In this document: one piece after another, positions 8,458 to 23,912 of the stretch
Layout: each line of letters starts with the position of its first letter
How positions within the stretch are numbered: the stretch's first letter is position 1
Translations under genes and position numbers: made by a program
Notes under the pieces: generated by a model
Seen by the model: only the letters and a program-made list of their open reading frames with translations
Databases searched by the model: none
Told to the model about the DNA's origin: nothing
Source of the DNA: Candidatus Doudnabacteria bacterium
GTDB lineage: Bacteria; Patescibacteriota; Doudnabacteria; UBA920
NCBI GenBank assembly: GCA_963837465.1
Contig: CAWINB010000004.1
Location: forward strand, 586,853 to 650,852
Direction of reading: 5' to 3'
Length of the DNA: 64,000 nucleotides

Positions 8458-8865
8458 TTATTCTTGTTTGCTCATCAGCAAACACGCGCCGTTTACGCAA
8501 AAGCGTTTTCCGGTGGTTTGCACAGGGCCGTCGTCAAATACGTGGCCCAAATGAGAGCCGCATTTACTACAGACTACTTCCGCGCGGGTCATGCCGTATT
8601 CGTCGTCTTTGTGAAAATCCACGGCTCCAGCAATGGCCTGGTCAAAGCTCGGCCAGCCGGTGCCGCTGTCAAATTTGGCATCGGACTTAAACAGTTCCTG
8701 GCCGCAAACGGCGCAGGCGAACATTTTTCCCTTTTCGTGGACATCCAAAAGCGGACTGCTAAAGGGCGCTTCCGTGCCTTTTTCCCGCAGTATTTTGTAT
8801 TGCCCGGGCGTGAGTTTTTTCTTTAATTCTTCTTCGTTAACCTGCATTTTTGTATCATCGGACAT
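8458..8865 (-). CDS. msrB: peptide methionine (R)-sulfoxide reductase
   Basis: two CxxC zinc motifs (CAVCGQ, CSKCGSH) and catalytic C near C-terminus; ATG at 8865 has AAGGAG Shine-Dalgarno 8 nt upstream. Confidence 0.9.
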   Translation of the reverse strand: MSDDTKMQVNEEELKKKLTPGQYKILREKGTEAPFSSPLLDVHEKGKMFACAVCGQELFKSDAKFDSGTGWPSFDQAIAGAVDFHKDDEYGMTRAEVVCSKCGSHLGHVFDDGPVQTTGKRFCVNGACLLMSKQE

Positions 8866-8887
8866 AAAAATTTCTCCTTTCAATATA

Positions 8888-8915
8888 AGTATAGCAGGAA
8901 CAAAATTGATGTCAA
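8888..8915 (-). promoter_or_regulatory. sigma70-like promoter for msrB: -35 TTGACA (8910-8915), 16-nt spacer, -10 TATACT (8888-8893)
   Basis: read on minus strand; consensus -35, good spacing, followed by SD and msrB ATG. Confidence 0.5.
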
Positions 8916-9034
8916 GTATACTTTACATTGGGTTTATCCTACCATAGGCATCTTAGATAATTCTTGATTCCGGATCCCGGATATTTTTTCGGATGCGCTC
9001 AAAAATTCCTGGATGGATACGCCACGATGCCAGG

Positions 9035-9556
9035 TTATTGCGGTATTAACTGATGCGCAAATCCGGCAAAAAATATTAACAGGCCCGCTATTCCCAAAAA
9101 CATCAGCAAAGTATCGGTCGGACTGCCGACCTTAAAGCGTAAGGCTTGGGGCAAAAGCGCGAAGCTTTTGGTCGTAAAAGGATACAAATATCCGACCTTG
9201 GCGTTAAAGCCGTCAATTAACGGGTGGCTAAAGTAGGCAGCGGCAAAGACGTAGGGCAGCAGGGGAATATATGAGTAAAAAATTGCCAGCAGAATAAAAA
9301 AGAAAATTAACGTCACCAAAATAGAGTGCATTAAGCCGCGGTGGTGAAAGTATTTGCCGTAAAATGCGCCTTTAAAAATACCCAAAAGCCCGCCGGCCGC
9401 GTAATGGATTTTGGCTCGGCTGGCGTCTATGTCCGGCAGCAGGCTGGCGACTACGGCAACCGGCAACAGCGCTAAAATTGACTGGTCAACTTTGCCAAAA
9501 AAACCGGCCAGCCAAATGGCATTGGCTCCAACCGCAGCGTGAGTTCTCCATGTCAT
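9035..9556 (-). CDS. membrane-bound metal-dependent hydrolase, YdjM/DUF457 family
   Basis: N-terminal MTWRTHAAVGANAIWLAG motif and multi-TM architecture typical of LexA-regulated YdjM. Confidence 0.6.
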   Translation of the reverse strand: MTWRTHAAVGANAIWLAGFFGKVDQSILALLPVAVVASLLPDIDASRAKIHYAAGGLLGIFKGAFYGKYFHHRGLMHSILVTLIFFFILLAIFYSYIPLLPYVFAAAYFSHPLIDGFNAKVGYLYPFTTKSFALLPQALRFKVGSPTDTLLMFLGIAGLLIFFAGFAHQLIPQ

Positions 9557-9564
9557 AAAATTTT

Positions 9565-9837
9565 TTACAAATAAATCCCATCCACATAACACCAGCGCCA
9601 GTCTTCGCCGGGCTGGAAAGATTTTATTATTGGATGTTTGGTAGCGCGAAAGTGTTTGGTGGCGTGTTTGTTTTTTGAGGAGTCACAGCAACCTATATGC
9701 CCGCAAGTCAGGCACATGCGCAAGTGTACCCAGGTGTCGCCGCTTTTTAAGCACTCTTCGCACCCTTCCGGCGTAACGGGTTTAATGTCCGGATTGATTT
9801 CCTTTAAATGCCCACAAGTTGTTTTTGGGTTTGCCAT
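9565..9837 (-). CDS. UBP-type zinc-finger domain protein
   Basis: CxHL...CxxC...WxCLxCGhxGC...HxxxH pattern of zf-UBP. Confidence 0.65.
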   Translation of the reverse strand: MANPKTTCGHLKEINPDIKPVTPEGCEECLKSGDTWVHLRMCLTCGHIGCCDSSKNKHATKHFRATKHPIIKSFQPGEDWRWCYVDGIYL

Positions 9838-9859
9838 AAGGTGTTTATCAATTATAAGA

Positions 9860-10243
9860 TTATCGGTTTAACATTCTCCAAAAATTTTTAACGCTAAAAT
9901 ATGTGGCGGCCAAAAATATCAGCACAAGGATCTGGTCCGTAATAAAAATCGCGACCAGGGGGGTTTGGGAAAACATAATGGCATGGCTCTCAAAGAACAC
10001 AATGGCCCAAAGTGAAATTACAATATCCATCCCCGCTGCCCAGCGCTGCTTCGGGCCGGTTAATCCCGCCATCACCGCCAACAGGACAATGGCGATAGTC
10101 ATAAATGTCGGGCTCTGGGGTAAATATTGCCTAAAAAACGGGTAAGTTAAAATCATAACAATCGCCCCGGCCAAAAAAAGCCTGCGGACAACACCATCCT
10201 CAAAAGGTTTCTGATTCAATTGCGGTCCCGGAGTTTCAGCCAT
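9860..10243 (-). CDS. hypothetical integral membrane protein (4 TM)
   Basis: hydrophobic helices throughout; no motif. Confidence 0.45.
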   Translation of the reverse strand: MAETPGPQLNQKPFEDGVVRRLFLAGAIVMILTYPFFRQYLPQSPTFMTIAIVLLAVMAGLTGPKQRWAAGMDIVISLWAIVFFESHAIMFSQTPLVAIFITDQILVLIFLAATYFSVKNFWRMLNR

Positions 10244-10304: not shown

Positions 10305-11366
10305 TTAGCTATGTTTTTGGTATCTTGTCGCGCTTCCCAAACCAATTCTTTCTATCAAATTTAGTTTCAACAATTTTGCCAGGACTTGGTTAATCGTAGG
10401 GCGGTAAACTTCGGTATTTTCTGAAATTTGTCTTGGGTTAGCTTCATTCACTGTTTGCATATACTCCCAAACTTTAAGCTGCAAAGGCGATAGTAATTTT
10501 TCCACGTTTTCTTTGCTTAGCAGCTTTATAGCCATTTGCGACTGCTGCAAGAAAATATCAAAGAAAAATTCAAGCCACGGGATTATGGTTTCTTTTTTGG
10601 TTTTGAAAGTGGTCTGGCTTCGGCGTAAGGCAATATAGTATTCGCTCTTATTGTCTTCTACCAGCTTTTCGTGTGACACATAAGACATATACAAAAAGCC
10701 TGCCTGCGACAGTAAGAGATTTGTTAAAATTCGGGATGCCCTGCCGTTTCCGTCCTGAAATGGATGAATGTTCAGGAACTCCAGGATAAAATTAGCAATG
10801 ACAAGCAGAGGCTCCGTTTTTTTCTCCTTAAGTTCTTTGATTGTCCATTCAACCAACTCCAGCATTTCTTTTGGAGCTAAGTAAGCAGGAGTTGGGTTAA
10901 AGACAGTCGCGATAACTTTACCTTTTTCGTCTGTCATTACTACCTTATTTTCACCCTTTTTATAATCACCCCTATGTCGCTGGTCTTTTTCCACGTACTT
11001 AAGCAGCTCTTTGTGAAAGTGTTTAACCGTGCTTTCGGAAAAACGGATACTCCGCCAGTTATCAAAAACAATATTAAGCAGTTCGTAATAACCCTTAACC
11101 TCACCTTTGTCCCTTTCGGAAAACTTTTGCTGGCCAATGCCGCGCATTAGCTTTTCTACATCCTCGTCAGATAGCTTCGCGCCTTCAATACGGGTGGAAG
11201 CGCCGGTGGAGCTGGATAGAACGAATTTTTTAAGCCTGCCTAAAACCTGCGGGCTAAGGTTAGCCCCGGACACCCATTGGCCTTGTAACCCCTTTATTTC
11301 GCCAATTTTTGACCAAATATTGCTTGGTAAATTAGCCAGCCTCTTGTTGAATTTGTTAGTTTTCAT
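10305..11366 (-). CDS. Fic-family protein (class II, with N-terminal inhibitory SxxxEG helix and C-terminal winged helix)
   Basis: HPFQDGNGRASR Fic motif; STRIEG inhibitory motif near N-terminus. Confidence 0.85.
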   Translation of the reverse strand: MKTNKFNKRLANLPSNIWSKIGEIKGLQGQWVSGANLSPQVLGRLKKFVLSSSTGASTRIEGAKLSDEDVEKLMRGIGQQKFSERDKGEVKGYYELLNIVFDNWRSIRFSESTVKHFHKELLKYVEKDQRHRGDYKKGENKVVMTDEKGKVIATVFNPTPAYLAPKEMLELVEWTIKELKEKKTEPLLVIANFILEFLNIHPFQDGNGRASRILTNLLLSQAGFLYMSYVSHEKLVEDNKSEYYIALRRSQTTFKTKKETIIPWLEFFFDIFLQQSQMAIKLLSKENVEKLLSPLQLKVWEYMQTVNEANPRQISENTEVYRPTINQVLAKLLKLNLIERIGLGSATRYQKHS

Positions 11367-11440
11367 GATTGTATATTTTAACTATATACAATTATATACA
11401 CTCATTGGATTTTTGTCAAATCCAAGTCTTATACAATGGA

Positions 11441-12845
11441 ACATGGCCCCTATCTTTGAGACAGCCTCTAAAGGAGGACGGTACCCCAATTGCTGAAACC
11501 GGAGGGTTGCCCGGAAGCTGTACAAAGAGCATAAGCCTGCCACACTGACTTGATGACAATCGATATGACAGACTTAAGCGTTACGAGCATAGCTCAAATC
11601 AAGGAATTTCTAAAGGTCAATACAGCAATTAATTTTACCTCAGTTTCCAGAAAGGAGAAATATGAATGGATTAACAACGTCTTAAACAAGTTTGGCTATG
11701 TCCGGCTTAAAGGCAAAAAAGACAAGGGGCAGATTAAGGAATATATCCAACGGATGACCGGCATGTCGGGCAGACAGCTAAAACGACTGATTACCAACAA
11801 GAGAGGAAGTGGGTTAGTGGCCTTGTCCCCGAATTGGGGCAAGAAAAACCGGTTTGTTACTGTTTATGGCCCGGCAGAAATACTATTGCTGGCTGAAACC
11901 GATAATCTGCACCAACGAATGAATGCCCATGCCACCAAACAGATCCTAATGGCTGAATATGAAATATTCGGTGACGAACGGTTTAAAAGACTAAAAGATA
12001 TTTCCGTTTCCCATATCTACAATCTGCGAGTTAAAAGAATTTACACCAGCCACTCCACCACCTTTACCATAACCGATCCAGTAAGCACCCCGATTGGTAT
12101 TAGAAGAAGACCCGACAATATGGGCATTCCGGGCTATCTGCGGGTGGATACCGTGCATCAGGGCGACCGTAAGCTGGCTTTGGGCAAGTATGAGAAAGGT
12201 ATTTACCACTTAAACCTGGTGGATGAAGTCACCCAATGGGAAATGGTCTTCTGTGTGGAAACGATTTCCGAGCTGCATTTAAAACCCATATTTGAACAGT
12301 TGCAGCAAATGTTTCCCTTTACAGTAATTAACTTCCACTCTGACAACGGTAGCGAGAACATTAATTACACGGTAGCTGATATTCTTAGAAGGTTAGTTAT
12401 TAAACAGACAAAATCACGAAGCAGGCACTGCAATGACAATGCCTTAGTGGAAAGCAAGAACGGCAGTGTCATCAGAAAGTATATGGGCTACACTCATATC
12501 CCGAAAACCTACGCGCAGGAGATTAACGAATTTTACCAGAAGTTTTTTAACCCTTACCTGAACTTCCACAGACCCTGCGGCTTTGCCACCACCACGGTTG
12601 ACCATAAGGGCAAGGAAAAGAAAAAATATGATATTTACTTAACTCCCTATGCCAAACTGAAGACTCTGGATAATTGGACACGCTACCTTGCCCCAGGACG
12701 GACGGAAAAACAACTGGATGACATCAGCACCGGCCACAGCCATAACGGATGGGCAAAACTTATGCAGGAAGCAAAGTCAGCAGTATTTAAAAACATTAAA
12801 CTTAAGGAACATCAAAAAATGGCCGCTGGCGGATAGGGGCCATGT
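11441..12845 (+). mobile_element. insertion sequence (~1.4 kb) with 14-bp perfect terminal inverted repeats ACATGGCCCCTATC
   Basis: IRL 11441-11454, IRR 12832-12845 (reverse complement identical); single DDE transposase ORF between them. Confidence 0.65.
11550..12836 (+). CDS. DDE-type transposase / integrase-core (rve) domain protein
   Basis: N-terminal HTH region; catalytic core HSDNGSE ... NDNALVESKNGS (D,D,E arrangement). Confidence 0.8.
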   Translation: MMTIDMTDLSVTSIAQIKEFLKVNTAINFTSVSRKEKYEWINNVLNKFGYVRLKGKKDKGQIKEYIQRMTGMSGRQLKRLITNKRGSGLVALSPNWGKKNRFVTVYGPAEILLLAETDNLHQRMNAHATKQILMAEYEIFGDERFKRLKDISVSHIYNLRVKRIYTSHSTTFTITDPVSTPIGIRRRPDNMGIPGYLRVDTVHQGDRKLALGKYEKGIYHLNLVDEVTQWEMVFCVETISELHLKPIFEQLQQMFPFTVINFHSDNGSENINYTVADILRRLVIKQTKSRSRHCNDNALVESKNGSVIRKYMGYTHIPKTYAQEINEFYQKFFNPYLNFHRPCGFATTTVDHKGKEKKKYDIYLTPYAKLKTLDNWTRYLAPGRTEKQLDDISTGHSHNGWAKLMQEAKSAVFKNIKLKEHQKMAAGG

Positions 12846-13141
12846 CTTGATTAGAAACTACTATCCACTTAATGCCGCTGGAAAAAATAGAAAAATCCAA
12901 ACAAAAAACCGAGATACGATTCTCGATTTTTTAGATGGTTGGGATGCCCGAAGGGGGTTGGACTGCCCAAGTTTCTCAAGCTGTGGCACAATATAGAGCT
13001 ACTTGGCTGTGAAGGATTGATGTAAACATTATATACTGCGCAGCTTGTTTTGCACTCGTTCCGATAAATATGTTATAATTAAAGCAACAATTTAATTGCC
13101 TAAACCTACTGCCGCAAGGCTTGGGCACGGCATAAAAACAT

Positions 13142-13245
13142 CGTGAAGCACGAAGACGGTCATCCGTCTTGCTTAATGCTTCACGGTGTTGCCAAGGGAA
13201 ACTTTGGTAGGCTCGCAAGAGCCGGGCAAGCGGGTGGCCCTTTTT
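13142..13245 (+). other. candidate structured RNA / multi-hairpin element upstream of bPH gene
   Basis: nested hairpin CGTGAAGCA[CGAAGACGG-tcat-CCGTCTTG]cttaaTGCTTCACG, then GGCTC-GCAA-GAGCC GNRA-loop hairpin and GGGC..GCCC + T5. Confidence 0.3.
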
Positions 13246-13273
13246 GTAGCCCGTAGAAAGGAACAACTAAGCA

Positions 13274-13735
13274 ATGGAATATCAAAAAGTCTGGGAGAAG
13301 ATATTAAACCCGGACGAAAAAGTAGAATACGAATTTTCGTTTAGTGATAAATATCGCAAAACTGTGCTAATTGTGTGGTCTATCGTTAGTCTTCTGTTTT
13401 TATTGTTGCACTGGATTTTTGTCGGCATCCTTACTTTTTTAATTGTGTTGTTGTGGTGGTATAGGGTCAAGGTAGCTAATGCCTATGCTTTTACCGACAG
13501 ACGCGTAGTTGTTCATAAGGGATGGCTGTCTACCAAAACCACGACCGTTGATTACGACAAAATAGTGGAGGTTTCTGTTAAAGAACCGTTTACCGAACGT
13601 AAATTTTACGGAAGCGGCGACCTTAACATTAAGACTGCTGGTAGTATAGTCCACGACCTAAGACTTGCCCATATAAACGCTCCTTATGAAGTTAAAAAGA
13701 AATTAGACCAATTAAGAAATAATTATTTAAAGTAA
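13274..13735 (+). CDS. bacterial PH-domain (bPH_2, YdbS/YdbT-like) membrane protein
   Basis: two N-terminal TM helices followed by FTDRRVVVHKGWLSTKTTTVDYDKI bPH_2 pattern. Confidence 0.7.
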   Translation: MEYQKVWEKILNPDEKVEYEFSFSDKYRKTVLIVWSIVSLLFLLLHWIFVGILTFLIVLLWWYRVKVANAYAFTDRRVVVHKGWLSTKTTTVDYDKIVEVSVKEPFTERKFYGSGDLNIKTAGSIVHDLRLAHINAPYEVKKKLDQLRNNYLK

Positions 13736-13780
13736 AGATGGCAGACTGGTGTCTACCATCGGCAGAAAGGAAAAAATTAT

Positions 13781-14521
13781 ATGAACGGTTTATTTATGTT
13801 TTTGTTCCTGCTTTCAATCGTTGGACTGATAGTGGGACTGATAAAACCGGCATTATTTAACAAATTGTTTAAAGGAAATGCGAACAGAAAAAATACAAGT
13901 GTAGCTTTTGGAGCCGCCATAGTTTTATTTTTTATATTGACCGGCGTTACAAGTCCAAAAAGTAATACGGCCAGCCAACAAGCAAATATTCAACCCCAGC
14001 AACAGACCTCCGCGGTAACTCAAAATGCGGCTATTCCTACAAGCAGCCCGGCTGCTGCGATAGCAATACCTCCAACAGCCCCACCAAAGACAATCAAAGC
14101 TGCTCCAAACATTCCTGCCAACCCTCAACCAAAACAGCCAGCAGCTACCACACCTGCGCCTGTTGCAACTCCGCAACCAACGCAAGCTCCACAAACAGAC
14201 AATCAAAATACTTCACCAACCTCAAATGAAACAGTTAGTCAACAAAATGCTGTTGCAAAAGCAAAAGATTATTTAAATTACACGGCATTTTCTCATGATG
14301 GATTGGTTGCTCAATTGGAGTACGACCAATTTTCACCGGCTGATGCGACCTATGGTGCAGATAATTCCGGTGCTAACTGGGATGCGGAGGCAGCTGCAAA
14401 GGCCAAAGACTACATGAGCTATTCAGCTTTTTCACGCGGTGGTCTTATCGCACAGTTGGAATATGATAAATTCACACAAGAACAAGCAGAGTACGGAGCT
14501 AACGCGGTTGGACTACAATAG
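13781..14521 (+). CDS. membrane-anchored protein with Pro/Thr/Gln-rich linker and two tandem Ltp-like (phage superinfection-exclusion lipoprotein family) domains
   Basis: repeats KAKDYLNYTAFSHDGLVAQLEYDQFSPADATYGA and KAKDYMSYSAFSRGGLIAQLEYDKFTQEQAEYGA. Confidence 0.6.
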   Translation: MNGLFMFLFLLSIVGLIVGLIKPALFNKLFKGNANRKNTSVAFGAAIVLFFILTGVTSPKSNTASQQANIQPQQQTSAVTQNAAIPTSSPAAAIAIPPTAPPKTIKAAPNIPANPQPKQPAATTPAPVATPQPTQAPQTDNQNTSPTSNETVSQQNAVAKAKDYLNYTAFSHDGLVAQLEYDQFSPADATYGADNSGANWDAEAAAKAKDYMSYSAFSRGGLIAQLEYDKFTQEQAEYGANAVGLQ

Positions 14522-14554
14522 GACAAATAAAAACGCTATTGATAATAAAATAAG

Positions 14555-15076
14555 TTGGTTATTATAATGGCAAATATTTTCAATAAGGAATTATCAAGCA
14601 GAGACCGCCGCTGGAAGTCACAACTTGAATGTTTAGGCGCAAGTCCAACAGATTTTGAAAGGACACGTCTTATGCTTACAAAAAGGTTTGGGCAAAAACC
14701 AAACTTTGATGATATTATCTGGTCAATTTTCAACGAATTAATAATTAAAACAAATGGTACCGGTGTGTTATTTTATTGGATGGCTTTATTTCAGGATGAA
14801 AAGGGAAGAAATTCGGCTCATCTACTTTACGATAGCCAGCGGTCTTGGTTGAAAATTTGGTTTAAAACGGGAGTGATAACTGTAAAAATTTGCACGGCTG
14901 GAGAAAAAGCCTGCAAAAACTGCCAAAAATTGGAAGGTATAATTACTCCCATAGACCAAGCCTTTCAAAATCCCATTATACCCTGTAAAGATTGTATTTT
15001 TCGTATGAATCCAAAAAGTCGGTTTGCCTTTTGCCGTTGTATGTACCGGCCGGAAGATGTGGGCAAGATAGGATAG
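14555..15076 (+). CDS. hypothetical protein with Cys-rich C-terminus (CKNC...CKDC...CRC)
   Basis: ORF; possible ATG at 14567; putative zinc-ribbon-like Cys pairs. Confidence 0.5.
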   Translation: MVIIMANIFNKELSSRDRRWKSQLECLGASPTDFERTRLMLTKRFGQKPNFDDIIWSIFNELIIKTNGTGVLFYWMALFQDEKGRNSAHLLYDSQRSWLKIWFKTGVITVKICTAGEKACKNCQKLEGIITPIDQAFQNPIIPCKDCIFRMNPKSRFAFCRCMYRPEDVGKIG

Positions 15077-15146
15077 TTACTACCGTGGTTAGCATATTTA
15101 AAATTATTTTTACGGGGTAAGGCATACAATTTATCAACCTTGCAAA

Positions 15147-15173
15147 ATAAACGCGCCTCAATCGCGTTTTTTT
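15147..15173 (+). terminator. rho-independent terminator
   Basis: AAACGCG-cctcaat-CGCGTTT followed by T7. Confidence 0.6.
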
Positions 15174-15283
15174 GATGTCAAGCCATAGAGTAAACCGGAC
15201 TAACGCATTAGAAACGGCGGTCGAGTTGCATTTTTTCAGGAAGGGCATTATAACATTGTAAATCCAGTATTAAGTTAAAGCGT

Positions 15284-15508
15284 ATGCGTTTTGCCAGCAA
15301 AGAGCAAAAATTACAATGGTTAAAAGCGGCAGCGGAAAAAATCCGCCATATGGAAGCCGAGCCTAACGCGGCGATAATGGCGCAAGAGTTTGGACGAGCA
15401 TATAGTTTATTGCGCGGGCTGAATTATGCCAAAGTTCAGTTTCGCAAAGTCAGCCACGGCCTCCGTAAAAGTTGCACCGTAAAAGTTGCAGTTGACCGTA
15501 GGTTATAA
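15284..15508 (+). CDS. small hypothetical protein (74 aa)
   Basis: ORF only. Confidence 0.3.
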   Translation: MRFASKEQKLQWLKAAAEKIRHMEAEPNAAIMAQEFGRAYSLLRGLNYAKVQFRKVSHGLRKSCTVKVAVDRRL

Positions 15509-15634
15509 AGGGCATATAATATGTAAGGATAACGGCTGGCACAGCAGACGTTATTAGACAGCTCTCCATATTCTGTGCGAGAGTTTTTTTGTTTTAAACT
15601 TTCAACTTGAAACTTTATAACTTTTAACTCATAT

Positions 15635-15709
15635 GGTGCCTGTAGCTCAATGGTAGAGCACCGCTCTGTGGCAGCGGCTACGAGGGTCCGATTCCCTTCA
15701 GGCACCCCA
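15635..15709 (+). tRNA. tRNA-His (anticodon GUG) with genomically encoded G-1 and 3' CCA
   Basis: cloverleaf folded by hand: G-1, acceptor GTGCCTG/CAGGCAC, D-stem GCTC/GAGC, anticodon stem CCGCT/AGCGG with loop CTGTGGC, T-arm, discriminator C + CCA. Confidence 0.9.
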
Positions 15710-15864
15710 AGTTCTGAATTTAATATAATCAAATAGATTTCCTCGGAGCTCTGCTCCGGATGATACTTTGCGCAACTCTTGCGCGATTTTTAGACTTGGC
15801 AACTATAATATATTAGGATATAATCGTATATAGTTAGGTATATACGATTAAACTACTATCAATT

Positions 15865-16932
15865 ATGGAAAACAACAAGTTTAGTAAAAGAATACGCTAT
15901 GATCAAGAAATCGTTAATTTACTGTCAAAGGTCGGAGATTTTAAGGCTCAATGGCAGGGCGGTTTAAGGCTTAGCCCGCAGATTTTGGGCAGGATTAAGT
16001 CTTGGGTCATCATTACCAGCACAGGGGCTTCTACCCGTATAGAAGGATCAAAAATGAGCGATAAGGAAGTCGCCCGTCTTTTACGTGGTCTAAAGAATAA
16101 AAAGCCGCAAGGCAGGGATGCCCAAGAAGTTGCTGGCTATGCTGATTTGATTGGCAGGATTTTTGACAACTACAAAACCTTAAAGCTAACCGAAAATAAC
16201 ATTTTGCAATTCCATAGCATGCAGCTGCAATTTTCAGAAAAAGACGAATACCACAGAGGCAAATATAAGGCTACCGATAATACTGTAATTATGAAAACGC
16301 CAGAGGGTCAGACAGTAGTATTGTTTCAACCCTCGCCGCCATACCTCGTTAAGCCAGAAATGGAAAGCGTTATTGCTTGGACTAACGAACAGCTGGAAAA
16401 AGACGAAATCCACCCCTTACTCGTTATTGCGAATTTTGTGTTTGAATTTTTAGCAATACACCCGTTCTCTGATGGTAACGGGCGTCTTTCTCGTGCCTTA
16501 ACCAATTTACTGCTTTTAAGAGCTGGCTATACTTATGTCCCTTATGTTTCTATGGAAGAAATAATTGAGGAACGCCGGACGGATTATTATTTGGCTTTAA
16601 GGCGAACCCAAAAAAACCATAAAAGCGAACACGAAGATATTACTGCTTGGGTCAAATACTTCTTGGAAGTTTTAGGAGAGCAAGCCGATCGAGCACGGAA
16701 GTTAATGGAATTGGAACAGCCAGAAAAGCTTCTTTCAAAAAAACAAGCGCAAATATATAAGTTATTTACGCACGGTCAAGAATTAGCGATTAAAGAAATA
16801 GATAAAAAGCTAAAAGGCGCTATACCGCAAGTAACAATCAAGCAGGCTGTAAACCGTTTGGTTGAATTAAAATTAGTTGAACGTTTAGGTATGGGCAGAG
16901 GTATTAGATATAAGAAGCTGTATCTATTTTAG
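15865..16932 (+). CDS. Fic-family protein (class II), paralog of 10305-11366 in inverted orientation
   Basis: HPFSDGNGRLSR Fic motif; STRIEG inhibitory motif; ~50% aa identity to first Fic. Confidence 0.85.
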   Translation: MENNKFSKRIRYDQEIVNLLSKVGDFKAQWQGGLRLSPQILGRIKSWVIITSTGASTRIEGSKMSDKEVARLLRGLKNKKPQGRDAQEVAGYADLIGRIFDNYKTLKLTENNILQFHSMQLQFSEKDEYHRGKYKATDNTVIMKTPEGQTVVLFQPSPPYLVKPEMESVIAWTNEQLEKDEIHPLLVIANFVFEFLAIHPFSDGNGRLSRALTNLLLLRAGYTYVPYVSMEEIIEERRTDYYLALRRTQKNHKSEHEDITAWVKYFLEVLGEQADRARKLMELEQPEKLLSKKQAQIYKLFTHGQELAIKEIDKKLKGAIPQVTIKQAVNRLVELKLVERLGMGRGIRYKKLYLF

Positions 16933-16980: not shown

Positions 16981-17172
16981 ATGGCGTTTGAAAGTATAGT
17001 TTTTCCCTTTGATAAGGACTTTAAAAGCTTTGAGCGGAAGGTCGGGGAGACCATGGCTTTAAGGGCCGAAGTGGAGCTTTTAAGGAGTGTGCTTATGGAA
17101 GACGGTAAAAGAGATGTCATAAAAAAAGCCGAAAAGGAAATGTACAAGCGGCATGCCGATTTGGCATCTTAA
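16981..17172 (+). CDS. small hypothetical protein (63 aa)
   Basis: ORF only, charged/coiled-coil-like. Confidence 0.35.
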   Translation: MAFESIVFPFDKDFKSFERKVGETMALRAEVELLRSVLMEDGKRDVIKKAEKEMYKRHADLAS

Positions 17173-17193
17173 AATAGGTTCTGGACAAAACCA

Positions 17194-17484
17194 ATGCATT
17201 ACGATTTTGACGCCTTTTTAAGCGCCATAAAATACCTGGACAAGGAAGATATTCTCGTGGCTGCTTATAAAAAACATAAATCTTTGGACAAGTCTTCCAC
17301 AATGTACACAATGGAAGCGCGTTTGGATTTGCAAAACAGTGTCGGCGATCTTTTGTATTTTTTGGAAAAAAACGAACGGCCGCCAAACGTTAAAGATTAC
17401 AATTTTGAAAAATTGAAACCCATTTGTGAAAATCTGATAAAAAAAGGACAGATGGACGCCGGGGCAATAAAATTATTTCAGTAA
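17194..17484 (+). CDS. hypothetical protein (96 aa)
   Basis: ORF only. Confidence 0.45.
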   Translation: MHYDFDAFLSAIKYLDKEDILVAAYKKHKSLDKSSTMYTMEARLDLQNSVGDLLYFLEKNERPPNVKDYNFEKLKPICENLIKKGQMDAGAIKLFQ

Positions 17485-17490
17485 ACATCA

Positions 17491-17525
17491 AAAAATCCCT
17501 TGCCGGTAACCGGCAAGGGATTTTC
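17491..17525. terminator. bidirectional rho-independent terminator between convergent genes
   Basis: A5-TCCCTTGCCGG-taa-CCGGCAAGGGA-T4. Confidence 0.7.
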
Positions 17526-17541
17526 AACTTTTAACTACAAG

Positions 17542-18867
17542 TTATCTCCACGATCTGTTGCCACTTTGCGTAGAAGGCCCGCGCGATCCCCGCGCGTAGC
17601 CGCCGGGACGGCGGAATTCGCCCTGGGAATTCGCGCGGGCAAAGCGGGAGGAGCTACTGTTGCCCGAAGAAGGACGACGGCCAAAACCGCCGCGTTGCGG
17701 CGGCGGGCTGTAAGGAGCCGGAGTGTGGGCCGGAAGCGAAGCCTTGCCCAAAGGCAGGTTCATCCTGATTAGCCGTTCAATGCTTTTAACCTCAAATTTT
17801 TGGTCGGGCGTGGCAAAAGAAATGGCTTTGCCGGACATTCCGGCGCGGCCGGTGCGACCGATTCTGTGGACGTAATCTTCGGAAGTCGAGGGTAAGTCGT
17901 AGTTAACCACCAGCTGGATGCCGGTAACATCTATACCTCTGGCCGCTATGTCCGTTGCCACCAAAACTCTGTAACGGCCGATTTTAAAACCTTCCAAAGC
18001 TTCTATTCTCTGGTTTAAAGAGCGGTTGGAATGGATTTCCGAGGCGGTATGTCCGTAGTTGCGGATAGTTTGGGCGATTTTTTTTGCCGCGAATTTAGTG
18101 CGGGAAAAAACCAAAATGCTGCCGGTGTATTCACTGAGGATATTTTGTAAAAGTTTGGCCTTGTCTTCTTTGCGCACAAAAAACAGTTCCTGCTCCACCA
18201 GTTCAATGGCCGTGCCCGCGGGCGCCACTTCTATTCTCAGCGGCAGGGACATATAAGATTTGGCAATGTCCACAATTTCGTTGGGCATAGTGGCGGAAAA
18301 AAGTAAGGTCTGCCTGACTTTGGGCACCGTGGCCAGAATTTTTTTAATCTGCGGCGCGAAACCCATATCCAGCATCCTGTCGGCTTCATCCAAAACCAAA
18401 ATGCTGACAGTAGTTAAACTGATCTGGCGGCTTTCCAGATGATCAATCAGCCTGCCCGGAGTGGCAATAATAATATGCGGGTTCATTCTTAACATCTTAA
18501 TTTGTTTGCCCATGCTCTCGCCGCCAATTAGTATGGCGGTTTTAAGTCCCAGACTGCCGCCGATTTTTTTTAAAGTTTCATTAACCTGAAGCGCCAATTC
18601 TCGGGTCGGTAAAATCACCAGACCTTTTTGTTTGCCGCCAGCTTGCGCCAGCCTTTGTATCATCGGTACGCCAAAAGCCAGGGTCTTGCCCGTGCCGGTT
18701 TGCGCGATACCCATAATGTCCTTGCCTTGTATGGCAGGAGGAATAGATTGATGCTGAATAGGCGTTGGCGTAATAAACTTATGCGCCTGCAAAATTTGCA
18801 AAAGCTTGGGCGCGATGCCCAAATTCTGAAAGCCGTTTGGGATAGTTGTTGATGGTGTAGTATTCAT
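17542..18867 (-). CDS. DEAD-box ATP-dependent RNA helicase with RGG/Arg-Gly-rich C-terminal tail
   Basis: motifs AQTGTGKT, DEAD, SAT, HRIGRTGR. Confidence 0.9.
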   Translation of the reverse strand: MNTTPSTTIPNGFQNLGIAPKLLQILQAHKFITPTPIQHQSIPPAIQGKDIMGIAQTGTGKTLAFGVPMIQRLAQAGGKQKGLVILPTRELALQVNETLKKIGGSLGLKTAILIGGESMGKQIKMLRMNPHIIIATPGRLIDHLESRQISLTTVSILVLDEADRMLDMGFAPQIKKILATVPKVRQTLLFSATMPNEIVDIAKSYMSLPLRIEVAPAGTAIELVEQELFFVRKEDKAKLLQNILSEYTGSILVFSRTKFAAKKIAQTIRNYGHTASEIHSNRSLNQRIEALEGFKIGRYRVLVATDIAARGIDVTGIQLVVNYDLPSTSEDYVHRIGRTGRAGMSGKAISFATPDQKFEVKSIERLIRMNLPLGKASLPAHTPAPYSPPPQRGGFGRRPSSGNSSSSRFARANSQGEFRRPGGYARGSRGPSTQSGNRSWR

Positions 18868-19713: not shown

Positions 19714-21342
19714 TTAGGCAAACCCCGGGAAAAAGTCGCTTTTAACATGGCTTTTTTTAATGCCCATTTGGCTTAAAACCGCCTCAAAATTATCCACCAT
19801 AGACTTGGGTCCGGAAACGTAAAATATCCTGTCCCGGTAGTCGGGGACTTTGTTTTGGATCATGGCGAGGTCAATGTACCCGATTTCCCCGGACCAGGAA
19901 TTTTGCCCGTCGTTTTTTGTCACGGTGTAAATAGTTTTAATGCCGAGTCGGTTTTCCGCTTCATCCAGAATTTCTTTATAAACCACGTCCTCGGGCGACC
20001 TGCTGGCGTAAAAAATTATGATATCGCGCTTTTCTTTGGCATCCATCAAGTATTTAAGCATGCTGCGGAAAGGCGTAATGCCGATGCCGCCGGCAATAAA
20101 GGCCAGTTTTTGGTTTTTGTTTTTGGGCAAAGTAAAATCTCCGGCTAATTGCCCGGCCATAATGGTTTGTCCCGGCAACATGGCCAGCAGGGATTTTTTA
20201 AAGCTGCTCGCCCCGTGGGAACCTGTTTTTTTTACGGGGCTCGCCCCGCGCGTTTTATTTGCCATTTCCGGCGGCCGATAAAACTTTACCCCCAAAATAA
20301 TTTCGCTTTCCGTCGGCGATGAAGCCAGGGTAAAATAGCGGCGGTTGCCCCGGTTGTCCGGGTTTTTGTGGCCCAAAGTCCATTCCAGATATTGGCCCGC
20401 GGAAAACCGGATTTTTTTATCGGCCTGAAAAATGAAATCGTAAATATCCGGGGATTTTTGGATTTTTTGTTTTAGGGTCAGCATCAGTTTTTGTTTGGGG
20501 CTGACTATGTAGGCAAAAATATTCCCAATACAGAGTGCCAGTTCAGGCGTGGAATAAATGCCGCCTATATGCAGCAGCGGAGAGAATAAAAAACCGGTCA
20601 GGACGCCGTAAGCTATTTGTAAATTGTTGGTGGGCGGGGTGGTTAGCGGCTCGGTCAGCATTATAAAACCCAAAAAAAACAGCGGCGTGTCCAGGAGCAA
20701 TTCTTTGGCAATAACCGTAACGCTGCTGCCGTTAAAAACCCCCAAAGTCAGGCAGGTTAAAGCCGCGGCCACAAAAAACCCAAACACCAAATCCCAGCGC
20801 TGGATTTTTCTTACGATTAAAAATCCGGTGATTAAGACCAGCGGCAGCATAGAGGCCGTGCCGACCCACCAACTTGCCGATTGCCCCAAAGCGAAGGAAG
20901 TAATAACTACGGCAATGGCCGCCGGGTTAAAAATATGTTTTTTCCCTATGGCTAAAACAAACTTGGACGCCATGGCCAAAATTCCGGCCGTGAGTAAAAA
21001 CAAATAGTCATTCCCGGTTTTGGCCGGGGTAATTATGAGGGCCAAAATCAGGGCGGTAATGTAAACCGATTCCAGGTTGGCGTGGGTTCTAAACACCGCG
21101 CAAAACAGCCGGTTGCCCAGCCAGCAGACAGCGGTTAAAAACAGAGCGGAAAAAATTATGGGGAAAAAACCGTAAGATAAAATGCCAAACAGGCTTAAAG
21201 TAGCCGCGCCGGCCAAAAGTACAATCAGAGAATACAGCACCAGGCGGTACATGGTAATCCTGTTTAGGAAGTTGTCTATGGGTTTTAGCATGGAGTGTTT
21301 ATGGAGGATATTAAGATATTGATAGGTATAACCGCGGAGCAA
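19714..21342 (-). CDS. polytopic membrane protein (~8 TM) fused to C-terminal FNR-like FAD/NAD(P)-binding oxidoreductase domain
   Basis: RRYFTLASSP (RxYS FAD motif) and LAFIAGGIGITPF (NAD(P) binding) in C-terminal third; true start possibly internal Met. Confidence 0.7.
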   Translation of the reverse strand: MLRGYTYQYLNILHKHSMLKPIDNFLNRITMYRLVLYSLIVLLAGAATLSLFGILSYGFFPIIFSALFLTAVCWLGNRLFCAVFRTHANLESVYITALILALIITPAKTGNDYLFLLTAGILAMASKFVLAIGKKHIFNPAAIAVVITSFALGQSASWWVGTASMLPLVLITGFLIVRKIQRWDLVFGFFVAAALTCLTLGVFNGSSVTVIAKELLLDTPLFFLGFIMLTEPLTTPPTNNLQIAYGVLTGFLFSPLLHIGGIYSTPELALCIGNIFAYIVSPKQKLMLTLKQKIQKSPDIYDFIFQADKKIRFSAGQYLEWTLGHKNPDNRGNRRYFTLASSPTESEIILGVKFYRPPEMANKTRGASPVKKTGSHGASSFKKSLLAMLPGQTIMAGQLAGDFTLPKNKNQKLAFIAGGIGITPFRSMLKYLMDAKEKRDIIIFYASRSPEDVVYKEILDEAENRLGIKTIYTVTKNDGQNSWSGEIGYIDLAMIQNKVPDYRDRIFYVSGPKSMVDNFEAVLSQMGIKKSHVKSDFFPGFA

Positions 21343-21347
21343 TATCC

Positions 21348-22094
21348 TTAATATCCTGCGGTATATTTTTCAAACCCGCTCGTCATAGTCGCGACGCCGT
21401 CTTTGTCCACGACATATCCCTCCAGTCCGTCCAGTTGCTCTATAAAAGTAATGCCGTCTTTGCCCATGGCAAAGGCGGCGGTGGCAAAGCGATCGGCTTC
21501 ATAGACATTGGGACCGAGCACGGTTATGCTGACAATCTCAATAATGAGGGAGTCGCTGAAAGGATTGTAGATATGCTGGTCGCGCTCGTAGGTTCCGGAG
21601 GTGGCAAGCCCGGCATTGTTCAGCTCCACTACTTTTATTATTTCTTTGGGCTTAAAAGGATTGCGAATGCCCGCGCGCCAGGATTGGCCGTCTTTATTTT
21701 GGCCGTAAGCCTGGATATCGCCGCCGGCCTCGACGTAAAAATTTTTAAAACCGGTTTGCTTAAGCAAACCGGAAGCCTGATAAACCGCCCAACCTTTAAC
21801 CAGGCCCGACGGGTCAATTTTTCCTTTATGGGAAATATCAAAATAACCCCGGCTCTGGTTTTTTGTCTGTTCAGCCAGGCTGAAAATTTCTTTCATCCCG
21901 GGGCTGTAGTCGGTGGGGTTTATTTCCCGGCGGTTGATTTTTGAAATTTCGCTTTGGGGCTTAAAAGGGCTGAATTTCCCGTCAACCCTTATAAAGTAAT
22001 CAAAAATTTTTTCTATATCAGTTTCACGAACATTACCGTCCATAACTTCAATGGTAATAGGCATGCCCATAATATCTGTTCTGGTCTTTTTCAT
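21348..22094 (-). CDS. apbE: FAD:protein FMN transferase (ApbE family)
   Basis: ApbE-family conserved blocks (AGGDIQAYG, ATSGTYER). Confidence 0.85.
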   Translation of the reverse strand: MKKTRTDIMGMPITIEVMDGNVRETDIEKIFDYFIRVDGKFSPFKPQSEISKINRREINPTDYSPGMKEIFSLAEQTKNQSRGYFDISHKGKIDPSGLVKGWAVYQASGLLKQTGFKNFYVEAGGDIQAYGQNKDGQSWRAGIRNPFKPKEIIKVVELNNAGLATSGTYERDQHIYNPFSDSLIIEIVSITVLGPNVYEADRFATAAFAMGKDGITFIEQLDGLEGYVVDKDGVATMTSGFEKYTAGY

Positions 22095-22166
22095 ATAGTT
22101 AAGATATTCGGGGCAAGACGCCGAAATTCTGAAATCGCGGCAGAAATGGATCTCTTCAGGCAGCCT

Positions 22167-22670
22167 CTAAGACGCCGCCTGGTTCAATGCCGACTGCAAA
22201 GATTGCGTAAATGCCTGGCTGTCCTGGGTAGCTCCGGAGACAACATCCACTTGAGCGCTTTGGGCGGCTATGGCCTCGCTTTTAAGCTGGGGCAGCGCCG
22301 TGCTGCTGACTTGGACGGAGTGCTGCGGAGCGTTGGGATACTGTAAAAACTGGATGTCCGTAAGTTTACCGCCGGAAATAACCGCCTCAACCTGGATGTT
22401 GCCGTAAACAGCATCGGCCACCGCGCCTGTGTAGCTGCCGTCTTTAAATTTTCCGGATGCTGTGGCGGGAGCGGACGGAGTTGGGGAAGTTATGGTCGTT
22501 GTGGCTGTACCGGGAGTTGAAGTTAATGGCGGGGTTGAGTTTGGAGTTTGGGTGGACGCGGTTTGCGTAGTCGTGGACAAGCTTGGAGCTTTTTGGCTTT
22601 CAGCGTGCTGGTAAAAAACATAAGCGGCAAAAATGACAACTACACCTACGGATAACAGAATTTTTTTCAT
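22167..22670 (-). CDS. secreted FMN-binding domain protein with SGAT flavinylation motif
   Basis: signal peptide, Thr/Ser/Pro-rich linker, FMN_bind domain with DVVSGATQDS (ApbE target Thr). Confidence 0.75.
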   Translation of the reverse strand: MKKILLSVGVVVIFAAYVFYQHAESQKAPSLSTTTQTASTQTPNSTPPLTSTPGTATTTITSPTPSAPATASGKFKDGSYTGAVADAVYGNIQVEAVISGGKLTDIQFLQYPNAPQHSVQVSSTALPQLKSEAIAAQSAQVDVVSGATQDSQAFTQSLQSALNQAAS

Positions 22671-22836
22671 TAGGATTAAATTTGATTAATAATTTTTTTA
22701 GTCTTTTTATTATACTATAGTACGTTATTTTTTAAAAGTCAGGCTCAAAGCCCATAAAACGAGGATTACCCTCGCTTTATATAAAAAAGTGTTATAATAA
22801 ACAAAAGGTTAAATCGGACTTAATAATATAAAATAA

Positions 22837-23874
22837 GTGGAAAATCAAAATTTTAAACCTGATGGAGCGGGAAAAAAAAGTAAAATTTTACTTTTTGCGC
22901 TCTTGGCTTTTGATATTCTGCTTTTGGTAACCTGTATTTTGCAAATAGTCTGGCCGCGCGTCAGTTTTAATAACAGCAGTTTTTTAAATCCTAAGGGTTT
23001 AATAGCTCAGCAGGAACGCGCGCTCATAGTAAAGGCCGTTTTAATAATGCTCATTGGCACAATTCCGGTTTACATTCTGATTTTTTTCTTTGCCTGGAAA
23101 TACAGGGCCGACAGGACGGAAACAAAATATTCTCCGGATTTGGAGGGTAAGGCATTGGGCGGAATCGCGCTTTGGGCGCTTCCCGCTTTAATTATTTTAG
23201 CGCTCTCGGTCATAAACTGGAAAAGCACCCACTTGCTGGATCCCTCTAACACAATCGCTTCCGGCGTGCCGCCCATAACCATAGAGGTTGTCGCTTTGCA
23301 ATGGAAATTTTTATTTATTTATCCGAAACAAAATATCGCTACCGTAAATTTTATTGAATTCCCTCAGGGTACGCCCCTGAATTTTGAGCTAACCGCGGAC
23401 GCGCCGATGAGCTCATTTTGGATTCCGCAGCTCGGCAGCCAAATTTACGCCATGGCCGGAATGCAAACACATCTAAACCTTATTGCCGACCAGCCGGGAG
23501 ATTTTAAAGGTATGGATACGGAAATAAACGGGACGGGCTTTTCGGGCATGAAATTTATTGCCAGGTCAACTTCGCGGGCGGACTTTGACCAATGGGTGGC
23601 ATCGGTAAAACAATCCGGCGCCAAGCTTAATCTGGATGATTACAATCAACTGGCCGAACCCAGCCAGAACAACCCCCAGGCTTACTATTCGTCCGTCGAT
23701 CCCGGTCTGTATGATACAATTATGATGAAAAATATGATGCCCATGACCCAGGCGCGAATGGAGCAGATGAGCAGTTTGGGATTGGGTGCCGCGAATTCTT
23801 CCGCAACGACTATGCCGGGAATGAATATGGGCAGTTCGTCGCCAATGAACATGCAGGGGATGGACATGAAGTAG
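22837..23874 (+). CDS. cyoA: cytochrome bo3-type quinol oxidase subunit II (no CuA ligands) with Met-rich C-terminal tail
   Basis: COX2 fold blocks WKFLFIYP, FWIPQLG; CuA Cys/His replaced (FSGMKF); tail with multiple MxM/MxxM. Confidence 0.8.
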   Translation: MENQNFKPDGAGKKSKILLFALLAFDILLLVTCILQIVWPRVSFNNSSFLNPKGLIAQQERALIVKAVLIMLIGTIPVYILIFFFAWKYRADRTETKYSPDLEGKALGGIALWALPALIILALSVINWKSTHLLDPSNTIASGVPPITIEVVALQWKFLFIYPKQNIATVNFIEFPQGTPLNFELTADAPMSSFWIPQLGSQIYAMAGMQTHLNLIADQPGDFKGMDTEINGTGFSGMKFIARSTSRADFDQWVASVKQSGAKLNLDDYNQLAEPSQNNPQAYYSSVDPGLYDTIMMKNMMPMTQARMEQMSSLGLGAANSSATTMPGMNMGSSSPMNMQGMDMK

Positions 23875-23912
23875 AACCTATTTTTCAAATAGGTTCTAAG
23901 TAGTCCATCTTA

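Follow-up and report, generated by a model that had tools for sequence, protein, structure and literature searches.

Two Fic genes sharing a palindromic promoter element in a low-GC, probably mosaic region around tRNA-His of a Candidatus Doudnabacteria genome

A stretch of 64,000 nt from Candidatus Doudnabacteria (assembly GCA_963837465.1, contig CAWINB010000004.1, positions 586,853 to 650,852 of the forward strand), hereafter the window, contains at positions 10,305 to 16,932 two Fic genes enclosing an insertion sequence (IS), a structured RNA, three small protein genes and a tRNA-His gene. The question raised by this locus was whether such a combination represents one horizontally acquired defence or exclusion island seated at a tRNA, as the original prediction had it, or a region with a more composite history. 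The interval from 10.3 to 17.5 kb was found to be, with fair probability, a rearrangement-prone, low-GC and mosaic flexible region around a core tRNA-His, formed in several separate events and not as one island. Its parts would be two self-contained Fic cassettes from distinct subfamilies, each running from a promoter with a palindromic operator to the stop codon, and a phage-related surface/membrane cassette (bPH, tandem-Ltp and MuF-like proteins) headed by a LOOT RNA leader, with the IS inserted later between the Fic1 promoter and the LOOT-headed cassette.

Composition of the region and its counterparts in relatives

All the features listed in the original prediction were recovered. The two Fic genes are divergent, facing outward around 4498 bp (11367-15864; about 4.5 kb had been given), and the 1.4-kb IS, the bPH membrane protein, the tandem-Ltp protein and the Cys-rich protein were all present, the last of them being MuF-like, while the structured RNA candidate turned out to be the LOOT RNA (Table 1). 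As had also been anticipated, the composition deviates. Among equal-sized windows, positions 10305-16932 constitute the lowest-GC 6.6 kb of the 64 kb, with a GC content of 0.412 against a mean of 0.469 (sd 0.011, minimum 0.446), which is well beyond chance expectation. Moreover, the GC content at third codon positions (GC3) was 0.32-0.40 in the bPH, Ltp, Cys173 and Fic2 genes vs 0.52-0.60 in the flanks, and this fall of 0.15-0.25 was restricted to 10.3-17.5 kb. The ydjM, zf-UBP and mem127 genes had native composition, the GC content of the left flank being 0.46-0.49.

Related loci were reached in metagenomes via protein homologues of the right-flank helicase and of Fic1 (L090, L092, L215 and L217), and two of them differed in content between the same flanks. 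In L092, the FMN_bind-ApbE-NQR...helicase genes appeared on one side (helicase 83% identical over 370 amino acids (aa), synteny kept) and msrB-HhH-GPD-SpoU-PMSR on the other (msrB 78% identical), with a helicase-to-msrB interval of 2.4 kb, holding tRNA-His, a GTPase and small open reading frames (ORFs), vs 8.7 kb in the window. In L215, the conserved flanks are msrB-ydjM (69-70% identical) and, at the opposite end, h63-h96-NQR-ApbE-FMN_bind, around an interior of tRNA-His, about 12 unrelated genes and then one Fic1-type gene (89% identical). The small ORFs h63 and h96 (80% and 66% identical, respectively, with the same order and orientation) follow 2.7 kb downstream of the L215 Fic gene; they had no family match in profile searches. 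None of the IS, LOOT, bPH, Ltp, Cys173 and Fic2 was found in the syntenic slots of L092 and L215. Furthermore, L215 also presented a 75-aa ORF, BacA and a 376-aa ORF without counterparts in the window, and zf-UBP and mem127 found no match in the relatives' loci. Since the flanks are kept on both sides and the interior is replaced in L092 and L215, the interior constitutes a variable slot between conserved flanks, and the two usual marks of a genomic island, compositional deviation and absence from related genomes, were both observed.

The tRNA-His, which had been listed as part of the cargo, was indeed present and is the sole tRNA in the window. However, copies of it 92-94% identical adjoin the helicase in L090 and L092 and lie near ydjM in L215; it keeps the same flanking genes in these three loci and is therefore core and not cargo. 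Its strand relative to the flanks in the window is opposite to that in all three. The helicase and tRNA-His were all that L090 shared with the window. The helicase was also compared with GTDB species representatives, where the best hit was 63% identical and none of the 80 loci retained was syntenic; the nearest helicases, at most 68% identical, belonged to Saccharibacteria and other Patescibacteria metagenome-assembled genomes. The source is an uncultured bacterium of the candidate phyla radiation (CPR) type, without a close sequenced relative.

The two Fic genes and their shared promoter-operator

Pfam matches were judged against the gathering score, and the profile scans covered the ORFs of 9.8-17.5 kb. 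Both Fic proteins (353 and 355 aa, where about 353 had been given) exceeded the gathering score of 24 bits for PF02661 (54.4 and 66.0 bits), and the motifs attributed to them could be read in both. The active-site motif HxFx(D/E)GNGRxxR appeared as HPFQDGNGRASR in Fic1 and HPFSDGNGRLSR in Fic2, in the form HPF(Q/S)DGNGRxSR, at residues ~200-212. The inhibitory SxxxEG motif was found as STRIEG at residues ~57-62 (Fic1) and 56-61 (Fic2), about 140 residues N-terminal to the Fic core on the same chain, in agreement with the class-II pattern (S/T)xxxE(G/N). In class-II Fic proteins the inhibitory motif stands on the same chain, N-terminal to the core, an arrangement described for SoFic (PMC12249575). 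Each protein would thus probably be an AMP-transferase held inactive by its own N-terminal SxxxEG helix. Matches of the C-terminal region to helix-turn-helix families were weak and below the gathering score (TrmB, E 7.2e-5; Penicillinase_R, E 2.6e-3), and the alignment to the solved structure 8uqu spans the C-terminus.

The two proteins shared 43% identity (152/355, E 4e-107), less than the ~50% first estimated. Orthologues of Fic1 in other metagenomes were 85-91% identical, including those in L215 (89%) and L217 (85%), and thousands of further relatives at 66-69% came from several candidate phyla including Omnitrophota, Margulisbacteria and Saganbacteria. For Fic2, the closest homologues were 85-86% identical, followed by thousands at ~65-69% across several Patescibacteria lineages. 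Orthologues thus exist for each gene separately, and the two do not stem from a duplication at this locus; a recent tandem or inverted duplication was ruled out by the 43% identity together with the separate orthologue sets. Fic1 and Fic2 are, judging from these homologues, distinct and widely distributed subfamilies. Moreover, two Fic genes at one locus were not seen in any other examined locus, and the bracket is therefore not a recurrent architecture. Patescibacteria and neighbouring candidate phyla hold two very conserved, cassette-like Fic families with a putative winged helix-turn-helix (wHTH), which are abundant but unstudied and toxin-like.

A common element was found upstream of these genes. 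The predicted Fic1 promoter is a 12/12 consensus match, and the palindrome AATTGTATATA-N-TATATACAAT overlaps its -10 box and abuts the start codon; the counterpart in front of Fic2 is TATAATCGTATATA-N6-TATATACGATTA. A promoter TTGACA-17-TATAAT with a palindrome was present upstream of six out of six Fic genes examined (Fic1 and Fic2 of the window and those of L083, L088, L215 and L217), which represent both subfamilies. The consensus of the palindrome was AAT(C/T)GTATATA-N5-6-TATATAC(G/A)AT, overlapped by the -10 box, and the near-identical element TATAAT(C/T)GTATATAGTTA..TATATAC(G/A)AT was thus shared by subfamilies 43% identical in protein sequence. The DNA homology of the Fic2-type gene in L083 starts exactly at 15796, that is, at the -35 box, and the homology with both L083 and L088 was limited to the stretch from the -35 box/operator through the stop codon. 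These closest Fic2 homologues occupied unrelated contexts, L083 beside AbiJ-like, resolvase-fragment and methylase-helicase genes and L088 among housekeeping genes, next to MscL and a class-I aminoacyl-tRNA synthetase gene (PF00579). The palindrome is likely an autoregulatory candidate operator and the apparent boundary of a mobile Fic cassette, and each Fic protein would probably repress its own promoter through binding of the C-terminal wHTH to it. Such a shared palindromic promoter element provides a concrete model for both the autoregulation and the mobility of these genes.

The operator pattern was also sought in viral contigs, where 18 matches appeared, none beside a Fic gene and none with a second half-site; they were rejected as Fic operators and attributed to chance or unrelated promoters. 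On a separate note, eight IMG/VR contigs (L219, L225, L227, L229 and L232-L235) carried a promoter with three tandem ATCGTATA(T/A)A motifs and no Fic gene nearby, a motif that equals a half-site of the Fic2-type operator. A search of viral contigs with Fic2 gave no close relatives.

A past rearrangement occurred at the conserved Fic promoter-operator. The pair of tRNA-His and Fic1 is mirrored inside collinear flanks, as tRNA-His(-)...Fic1(+) in L215 and Fic1(-)...tRNA-His(+) in the window. The terminator that directly precedes the Fic2 promoter shares homology with an element 5' of the Fic1-type promoter of L215 (21/24, z = 7.0, 0/300 shuffles), and in L217 tRNA-His lies directly upstream of a Fic1-type gene, as it does upstream of Fic2 in the window. 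Together with the junction at the -35 box, these observations indicate that Fic2 stands in the slot (terminator-promoter-Fic...h63-h96) where L215 has a Fic1-type gene. This agrees equally well with two explanations, either a recombination between promoter-operators that inverted the segment, or a replacement of the Fic cassette together with a relocation of Fic1.

The first of these can be extended to the view that the whole segment between the Fic genes was inverted, or is still invertible, via its two inverted promoter-operator/5' regions, thereby swapping which Fic gene follows tRNA-His. It draws on the mirrored order in L215, the reversed strand of tRNA-His relative to the helicase in L090 and L092, the shared terminator, the start of Fic2-type homology at exactly the -35 box, the arrangement in L217 and the fact that the promoter-operator is the best-conserved inverted repeat of the region. 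The best inverted matches were 50 nt at 74%, 47 nt at 70% and 27 nt at 85%, the 47-nt repeat being there because the promoter-palindrome is common to both Fic genes. However, the perfect shared match amounts to 11 nt within an element of ~33 nt, and this, like the coding matches (50 nt/74% and 27 nt/85%), would be a poor RecA substrate. The Fic coding sequences, in which the longest inverted match is the one of 50 nt at 74%, are so diverged that recombination between them is unlikely. No invertase was found in the profile scans, there are no long near-identical inverted repeats, and exact-protein look-ups of Ltp, bPH and the IS transposase gave no other contigs. The replacement of a Fic1-type by a Fic2-type cassette with relocation of Fic1 accounts for the same data as well. 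On balance, an inversion of the segment was considered rather unlikely. The suggestion that the inverted Fic genes could mediate it may thus hold in a refined form, at their promoter-operators and not between their coding sequences.

Regarding function, SoFic is a class-II Fic AMP-transferase of Shewanella oneidensis and E. coli that acts as a single-gene anti-phage system (10.1101/2022.05.11.491447; PMC12249575). The window proteins resemble it in their SxxxEG helix, HPFxDGNGR core, putative C-terminal helix-turn-helix and length of ~355-370 aa, and the PADLOC SoFic model matched over ~290 residues (E 2e-39 for Fic1 and 1e-42 for Fic2). In contrast, the alignment to the solved SoFic structure covered the Fic core only (E 4e-8, residues 171-269), no AS1-like antitoxin was evident at the window genes, and the host is a CPR bacterium. 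The small ORFs h63 and h96 were discarded as SoFic-type antitoxins, since L215 conserves them at a distance of 2.7 kb from its Fic gene. The closest solved relative was PDB 8uqu, a 'Fido domain-containing protein' aligned over its full length (Fic2 residues 9-351 vs 29-364, E 1.4e-38); no published paper mentioning it was found, and therefore no function can be transferred from it to Fic2. A defence role of the SoFic kind, in which the Fic proteins would be toxin-like effectors of growth arrest or abortive infection, is suggested by homology only.

Weighing a single island and vertical descent

On the original prediction, the two Fic genes would delimit one defence/exclusion island that was acquired horizontally and integrated at tRNA-His. 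The region does resemble tRNA-linked genomic (defence) islands in its low GC, its lineage-variable cargo beside a tRNA and the presence of an IS. Furthermore, both Fic proteins matched the SoFic model, the Ltp protein matched superinfection-exclusion families, and the Fic2 homologue in L083 lies in a defence-like neighbourhood. Unlike in such islands, no integrase and no recombinase of the tyrosine or serine type was found among the ORFs of 9.8-17.5 kb, and the 3' end of tRNA-His recurs nowhere in the window as a direct repeat, no repeat of tRNA-His exceeding 11 nt; integrase and tRNA 3'-end repeats, which characterize integrative islands, are thus both missing. Moreover, tRNA-His sits inside the segment with most of the cargo on its 5' side, and tRNA-His, Fic1, h63 and h96 are common to relatives in other arrangements. 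Each Fic gene has phylogenetic affinities of its own, and besides the two Fic proteins no protein of the region convincingly matched PADLOC. Composition, variable content, Ltp and SoFic matches speak for the original prediction, while integration as a unit does not hold, the region being a mosaic of several separate histories; a single island was deemed improbable. Taken as an island, the locus is unremarkable, being one more flexible region of low GC beside a tRNA, and its value lies in the Fic cassettes with their operator, the LOOT RNA and the Cys173 family.

Least probable was an ordinary, vertically inherited chromosome in which low GC would reflect the composition of membrane and regulatory genes and the differences a general loss of synteny, for although the relatives are distant (flank proteins 49-83% identical) and synteny decays fast everywhere, as in L090 and the 80 GTDB loci, the flanks are collinear with L092 and L215 on both sides of a wholly replaced interior, the drop in GC3 is limited to 10.3-17.5 kb, the nearest Fic2 relatives (85%) lie in unrelated contexts and an IS is present.

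The reading as a flexible mosaic formed by several events has in turn points to be counted against it. The low GC could in part be intrinsic to these gene families. Gain, loss and the order of events are weakly polarised, as the comparison had to rely on no more than three partly syntenic relatives, whose flank proteins are 49-83% identical. Fic1, h63 and h96 are common to the window and L215, and part of the supposed island is therefore old in the lineage. With respect to the IS, no direct repeat abuts its inverted repeats as a target-site duplication, and no second copy occurs in the 64-kb window. Finally, the NCBIfam equivalog for SoFic (NF046030) scored 45.9 and 55.7 bits with the two Fic proteins vs a cut-off of 550. 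It was also observed that Fic1 and h63 were 89% and 80% identical between the window and L215, where neighbouring housekeeping proteins were 49-70% identical, which would reflect either unusually strong constraint or recent exchange.

The LOOT RNA, the phage-related cassette and the insertion sequence

The LOOT RNA motif (Weinberg et al. 2017, PMC5737381) is typed in Rfam as a stand-alone small RNA. The window copy scored 67 bits with RF03000 (gathering score 46.4) over the full length of the model (positions 1-121), with a folding z-score of -4.7. In contrast to its typing, the LOOT of the window and those surveyed precede an ORF on the same strand. A pattern search provided 120 metagenome loci (L095-L214), and all 20 that were tested proved bona fide. 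The downstream gene was on the same strand in 90 of the 94 informative loci (p = 3e-22), at a median gap of 44 nt, and the upstream genes were mostly divergent. A hydrophobic segment was present in 77% of the LOOT-downstream proteins vs 33% of control ORFs, while their domains were heterogeneous (zinc ribbons, tRNA_anti-like, SNase, Mrr_cat, Ltp, Excalibur and DUF4352), and Ltp-type genes followed LOOT in three other loci (L117, L153 and L168). No match to the LOOT pattern was found in viral contigs. LOOT thus seems to behave as a 5' leader of membrane-protein genes across the metagenome loci, and in the window it would be the leader of a bPH-Ltp operon.

Downstream of the portion covered by Rfam, a conserved 3' extension was found to form a 12-bp helix with the central hairpin, both extension and helix lying outside the Rfam model. 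In the survey, 91.8% of the cells of this helix were paired vs 41-59% when it was slid, with 126 double-change cells vs 17-33, so that it covaries strongly. In the window, positions 13227-13239 pair with 13158-13171, the duplex reaching -18.6 kcal/mol vs -10.0 kcal/mol for the local hairpin, which would be excluded by the new helix. This competition, with a U-tract after it, suggests that LOOT works by attenuation. LOOT may therefore be an attenuator- or riboswitch-like leader of membrane and surface-protein genes, including Ltp-type ones, across Patescibacteria, and not a free-standing small RNA. An orphan RNA would in this way gain a consistent genomic role and an extra covarying helix, which makes its function experimentally approachable. 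On the side of the Fic genes, the two subfamilies may be cross-regulated through one operator, and recombination at this operator may have exchanged upstream contexts and inverted the tRNA-His segment. The joint proposal, with LOOT as a cis-acting leader of membrane/surface genes and one operator cross-regulating and recombining the Fic pair, is a tentative one, to be regarded with more doubt than confidence.

LOOT, bPH, Ltp and Cys173 are all co-oriented. In addition to its Pfam domain, bPH matched phrog_3707 ('membrane-flanked domain', E 7.6e-8). The lipoprotein Ltp of Streptococcus thermophilus phage TP-J34 (Pfam PF07553) acts in superinfection exclusion. Like it, the window protein has two tandem C-terminal Ltp repeats, seen as two stretches of PF07553 (79.4 bits), and is envelope-anchored, by hydrophobic helices and a linker of ~90 residues rich in P/Q/T/A. 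The assignment held in profile searches, as phrog_4980 and phrog_15667 ('superinfection exclusion') were matched with E 5.8e-34 and 6e-27, and residues 147-244 were 55-61% identical to phage lipoproteins. In contrast to TP-J34 Ltp, the N-terminal 60 residues contain no lipobox cysteine, and the gene belongs to a LOOT-led operon of the chromosome. There is no prophage around it, the profile scans having detected neither structural nor lysogeny genes of phages. A search of viral contigs with Ltp gave no close relatives. Both bPH and Ltp had PHROG 'moron' matches. As with the Ltp exclusion proteins of phages, the site of action of the protein would be the cell surface, and an exclusion role of this type is suggested by homology only.

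The Cys173 protein had no Pfam match of its own. Its family comprised at least 564 representative sequences, with the invariant residues C116, C119, P139, C143, C156, R157 and C158 (signature CxxC...P...C...CRC). Fusions to N-terminal zinc ribbons or to larger proteins are frequent, and 7 out of 49 homologues matched PF04233 (Phage_Mu_F). The AlphaFold model was confident (mean predicted score, pLDDT, of 94.4), profile and fold searches against PDB gave nothing significant, and the best BFVD matches were MuF-like minor capsid proteins, although marginal (E ~1e-3, TM 0.3-0.39). It stands for a MuF-related Cys-rich domain family that folds confidently and lacks a solved structural relative. Given the phage-family matches of bPH, Ltp and Cys173, the cassette looks phage-derived, with no prophage present.

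The IS has perfect 14-nt inverted repeats at 11441-11454 and 12832-12845, 1377 nt apart, around its transposase, and sits 21 nt upstream of the Fic1 -35 box. Profile matches of the transposase pointed weakly to IS3/IS481, and it was 44% identical to a Polaromonas plasmid 'integrase' and 24% to an ISNCY-family transposase. With a single rve-type transposase between short terminal inverted repeats the element is similar to ISNCY and IS481-IS3-like elements, and it differs in having no target duplication and a single copy in the window. The Logan contig L082 ends at ~11453, inside the left inverted repeat, which is the sole hint of repetition. A second contig of the same run (ERR10755945), L001, starts at ~15641, inside tRNA-His; both breaks are consistent with shared or repeated sequence in the sample, or possibly with structural variants.

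The scans predicted consensus promoters 5' of Fic1, Fic2, Cys173 and tRNA-His and terminators 3' of Cys173 and tRNA-His, which together make a coherent transcription map.

Table 1. Coordinates of the features within and beside the low-GC region of the window
Feature	Position	Strand	Description	Basis
Left flank	8458..10243	-	msrB, ydjM, zf-UBP protein, mem127	ORF list; Pfam families on identical Logan contig L082
msrB	8458-8883	-		syntenic in L215 and L092
ydjM	9035-9592	-		syntenic in L215
zf-UBP protein	9565-9837	-		Pfam family on Logan contig L082
mem127	9860-10243	-	127-aa membrane protein	ORF list
Fic1	10305..11366	-	class-II Fic AMPylase-type protein, putative C-terminal winged HTH, 353 aa	PF02661 54.4 bits; PADLOC SoFic 2e-39
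Fic1 predicted promoter and palindrome	11367..11419	-	TTGACA-17-TATAAT; AATTGTATATA-N-TATATACAAT	candidate operator
IS	11441..12845	+	1405 bp	perfect 14-nt terminal inverted repeats
Transposase	11550-12836	+	DDE (rve-type), 428 aa	rve 24.4 bits, below gathering score 32.6
Bidirectional terminator-like hairpin	12902..12933		between IS and LOOT promoter	terminator scan
LOOT RNA	13097..13246	+	RF03000; conserved 3' extension, then U-tract	Rfam model covers 13097-13223
bPH_2 membrane protein	13274..13735	+	153 aa, hydrophobic N-terminal segments	PF03703 E 3.9e-15; GC3 0.40
Ltp protein	13781..14521	+	membrane-anchored, 246 aa, two C-terminal Ltp repeats	PF07553 79.4 bits vs 23.2
Cys173 predicted promoter	14539-14568	+	own promoter	promoter scan
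Cys173	14567..15076	+	Cys-rich protein, 169 aa	distant stand-alone relative of phage MuF / head-morphogenesis domain
tRNA-His (GTG)	15636..15709	+	encoded G-1 and CCA	sole tRNA in window
Terminator hairpin	15768..15791	+	after tRNA-His, immediately 5' of Fic2 promoter	terminator scan
Fic2 predicted promoter and palindrome	15796..15864	+	TTGGCA-17-TATAAT; TATAATCGTATATA-N6-TATATACGATTA	promoter scan and comparison
Fic2	15865..16932	+	class-II Fic AMPylase-type protein, putative C-terminal winged HTH, 355 aa	PF02661 66.0 bits; PADLOC SoFic 1e-42
h63 and h96	16981..17484	+	two small conserved ORFs, right-hand flank	homologues in L215
DEAD-box RNA helicase	17542..18867	-	conserved right flank, then NQR-like/ApbE/FMN_bind genes	syntenic in L092

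Two further observations concern the right-hand side. Positions 17491-17525, between h96 and the convergent helicase gene, form a hairpin from a perfect 16-bp palindrome, with T-runs to its left and right, which is probably a bidirectional terminator at the right edge of the low-GC region. Beyond the helicase, at 19714-25979, genes for an NQR/RnfD-like NAD-binding protein, ApbE and an FMN_bind protein adjoin heme-copper oxidase subunits (COX_ARM/COX1), a respiratory-type content in a Patescibacteria-like genome of about 0.87 Mb; the NQR/RnfD-like, ApbE and FMN_bind genes are also found in L092 and L215.

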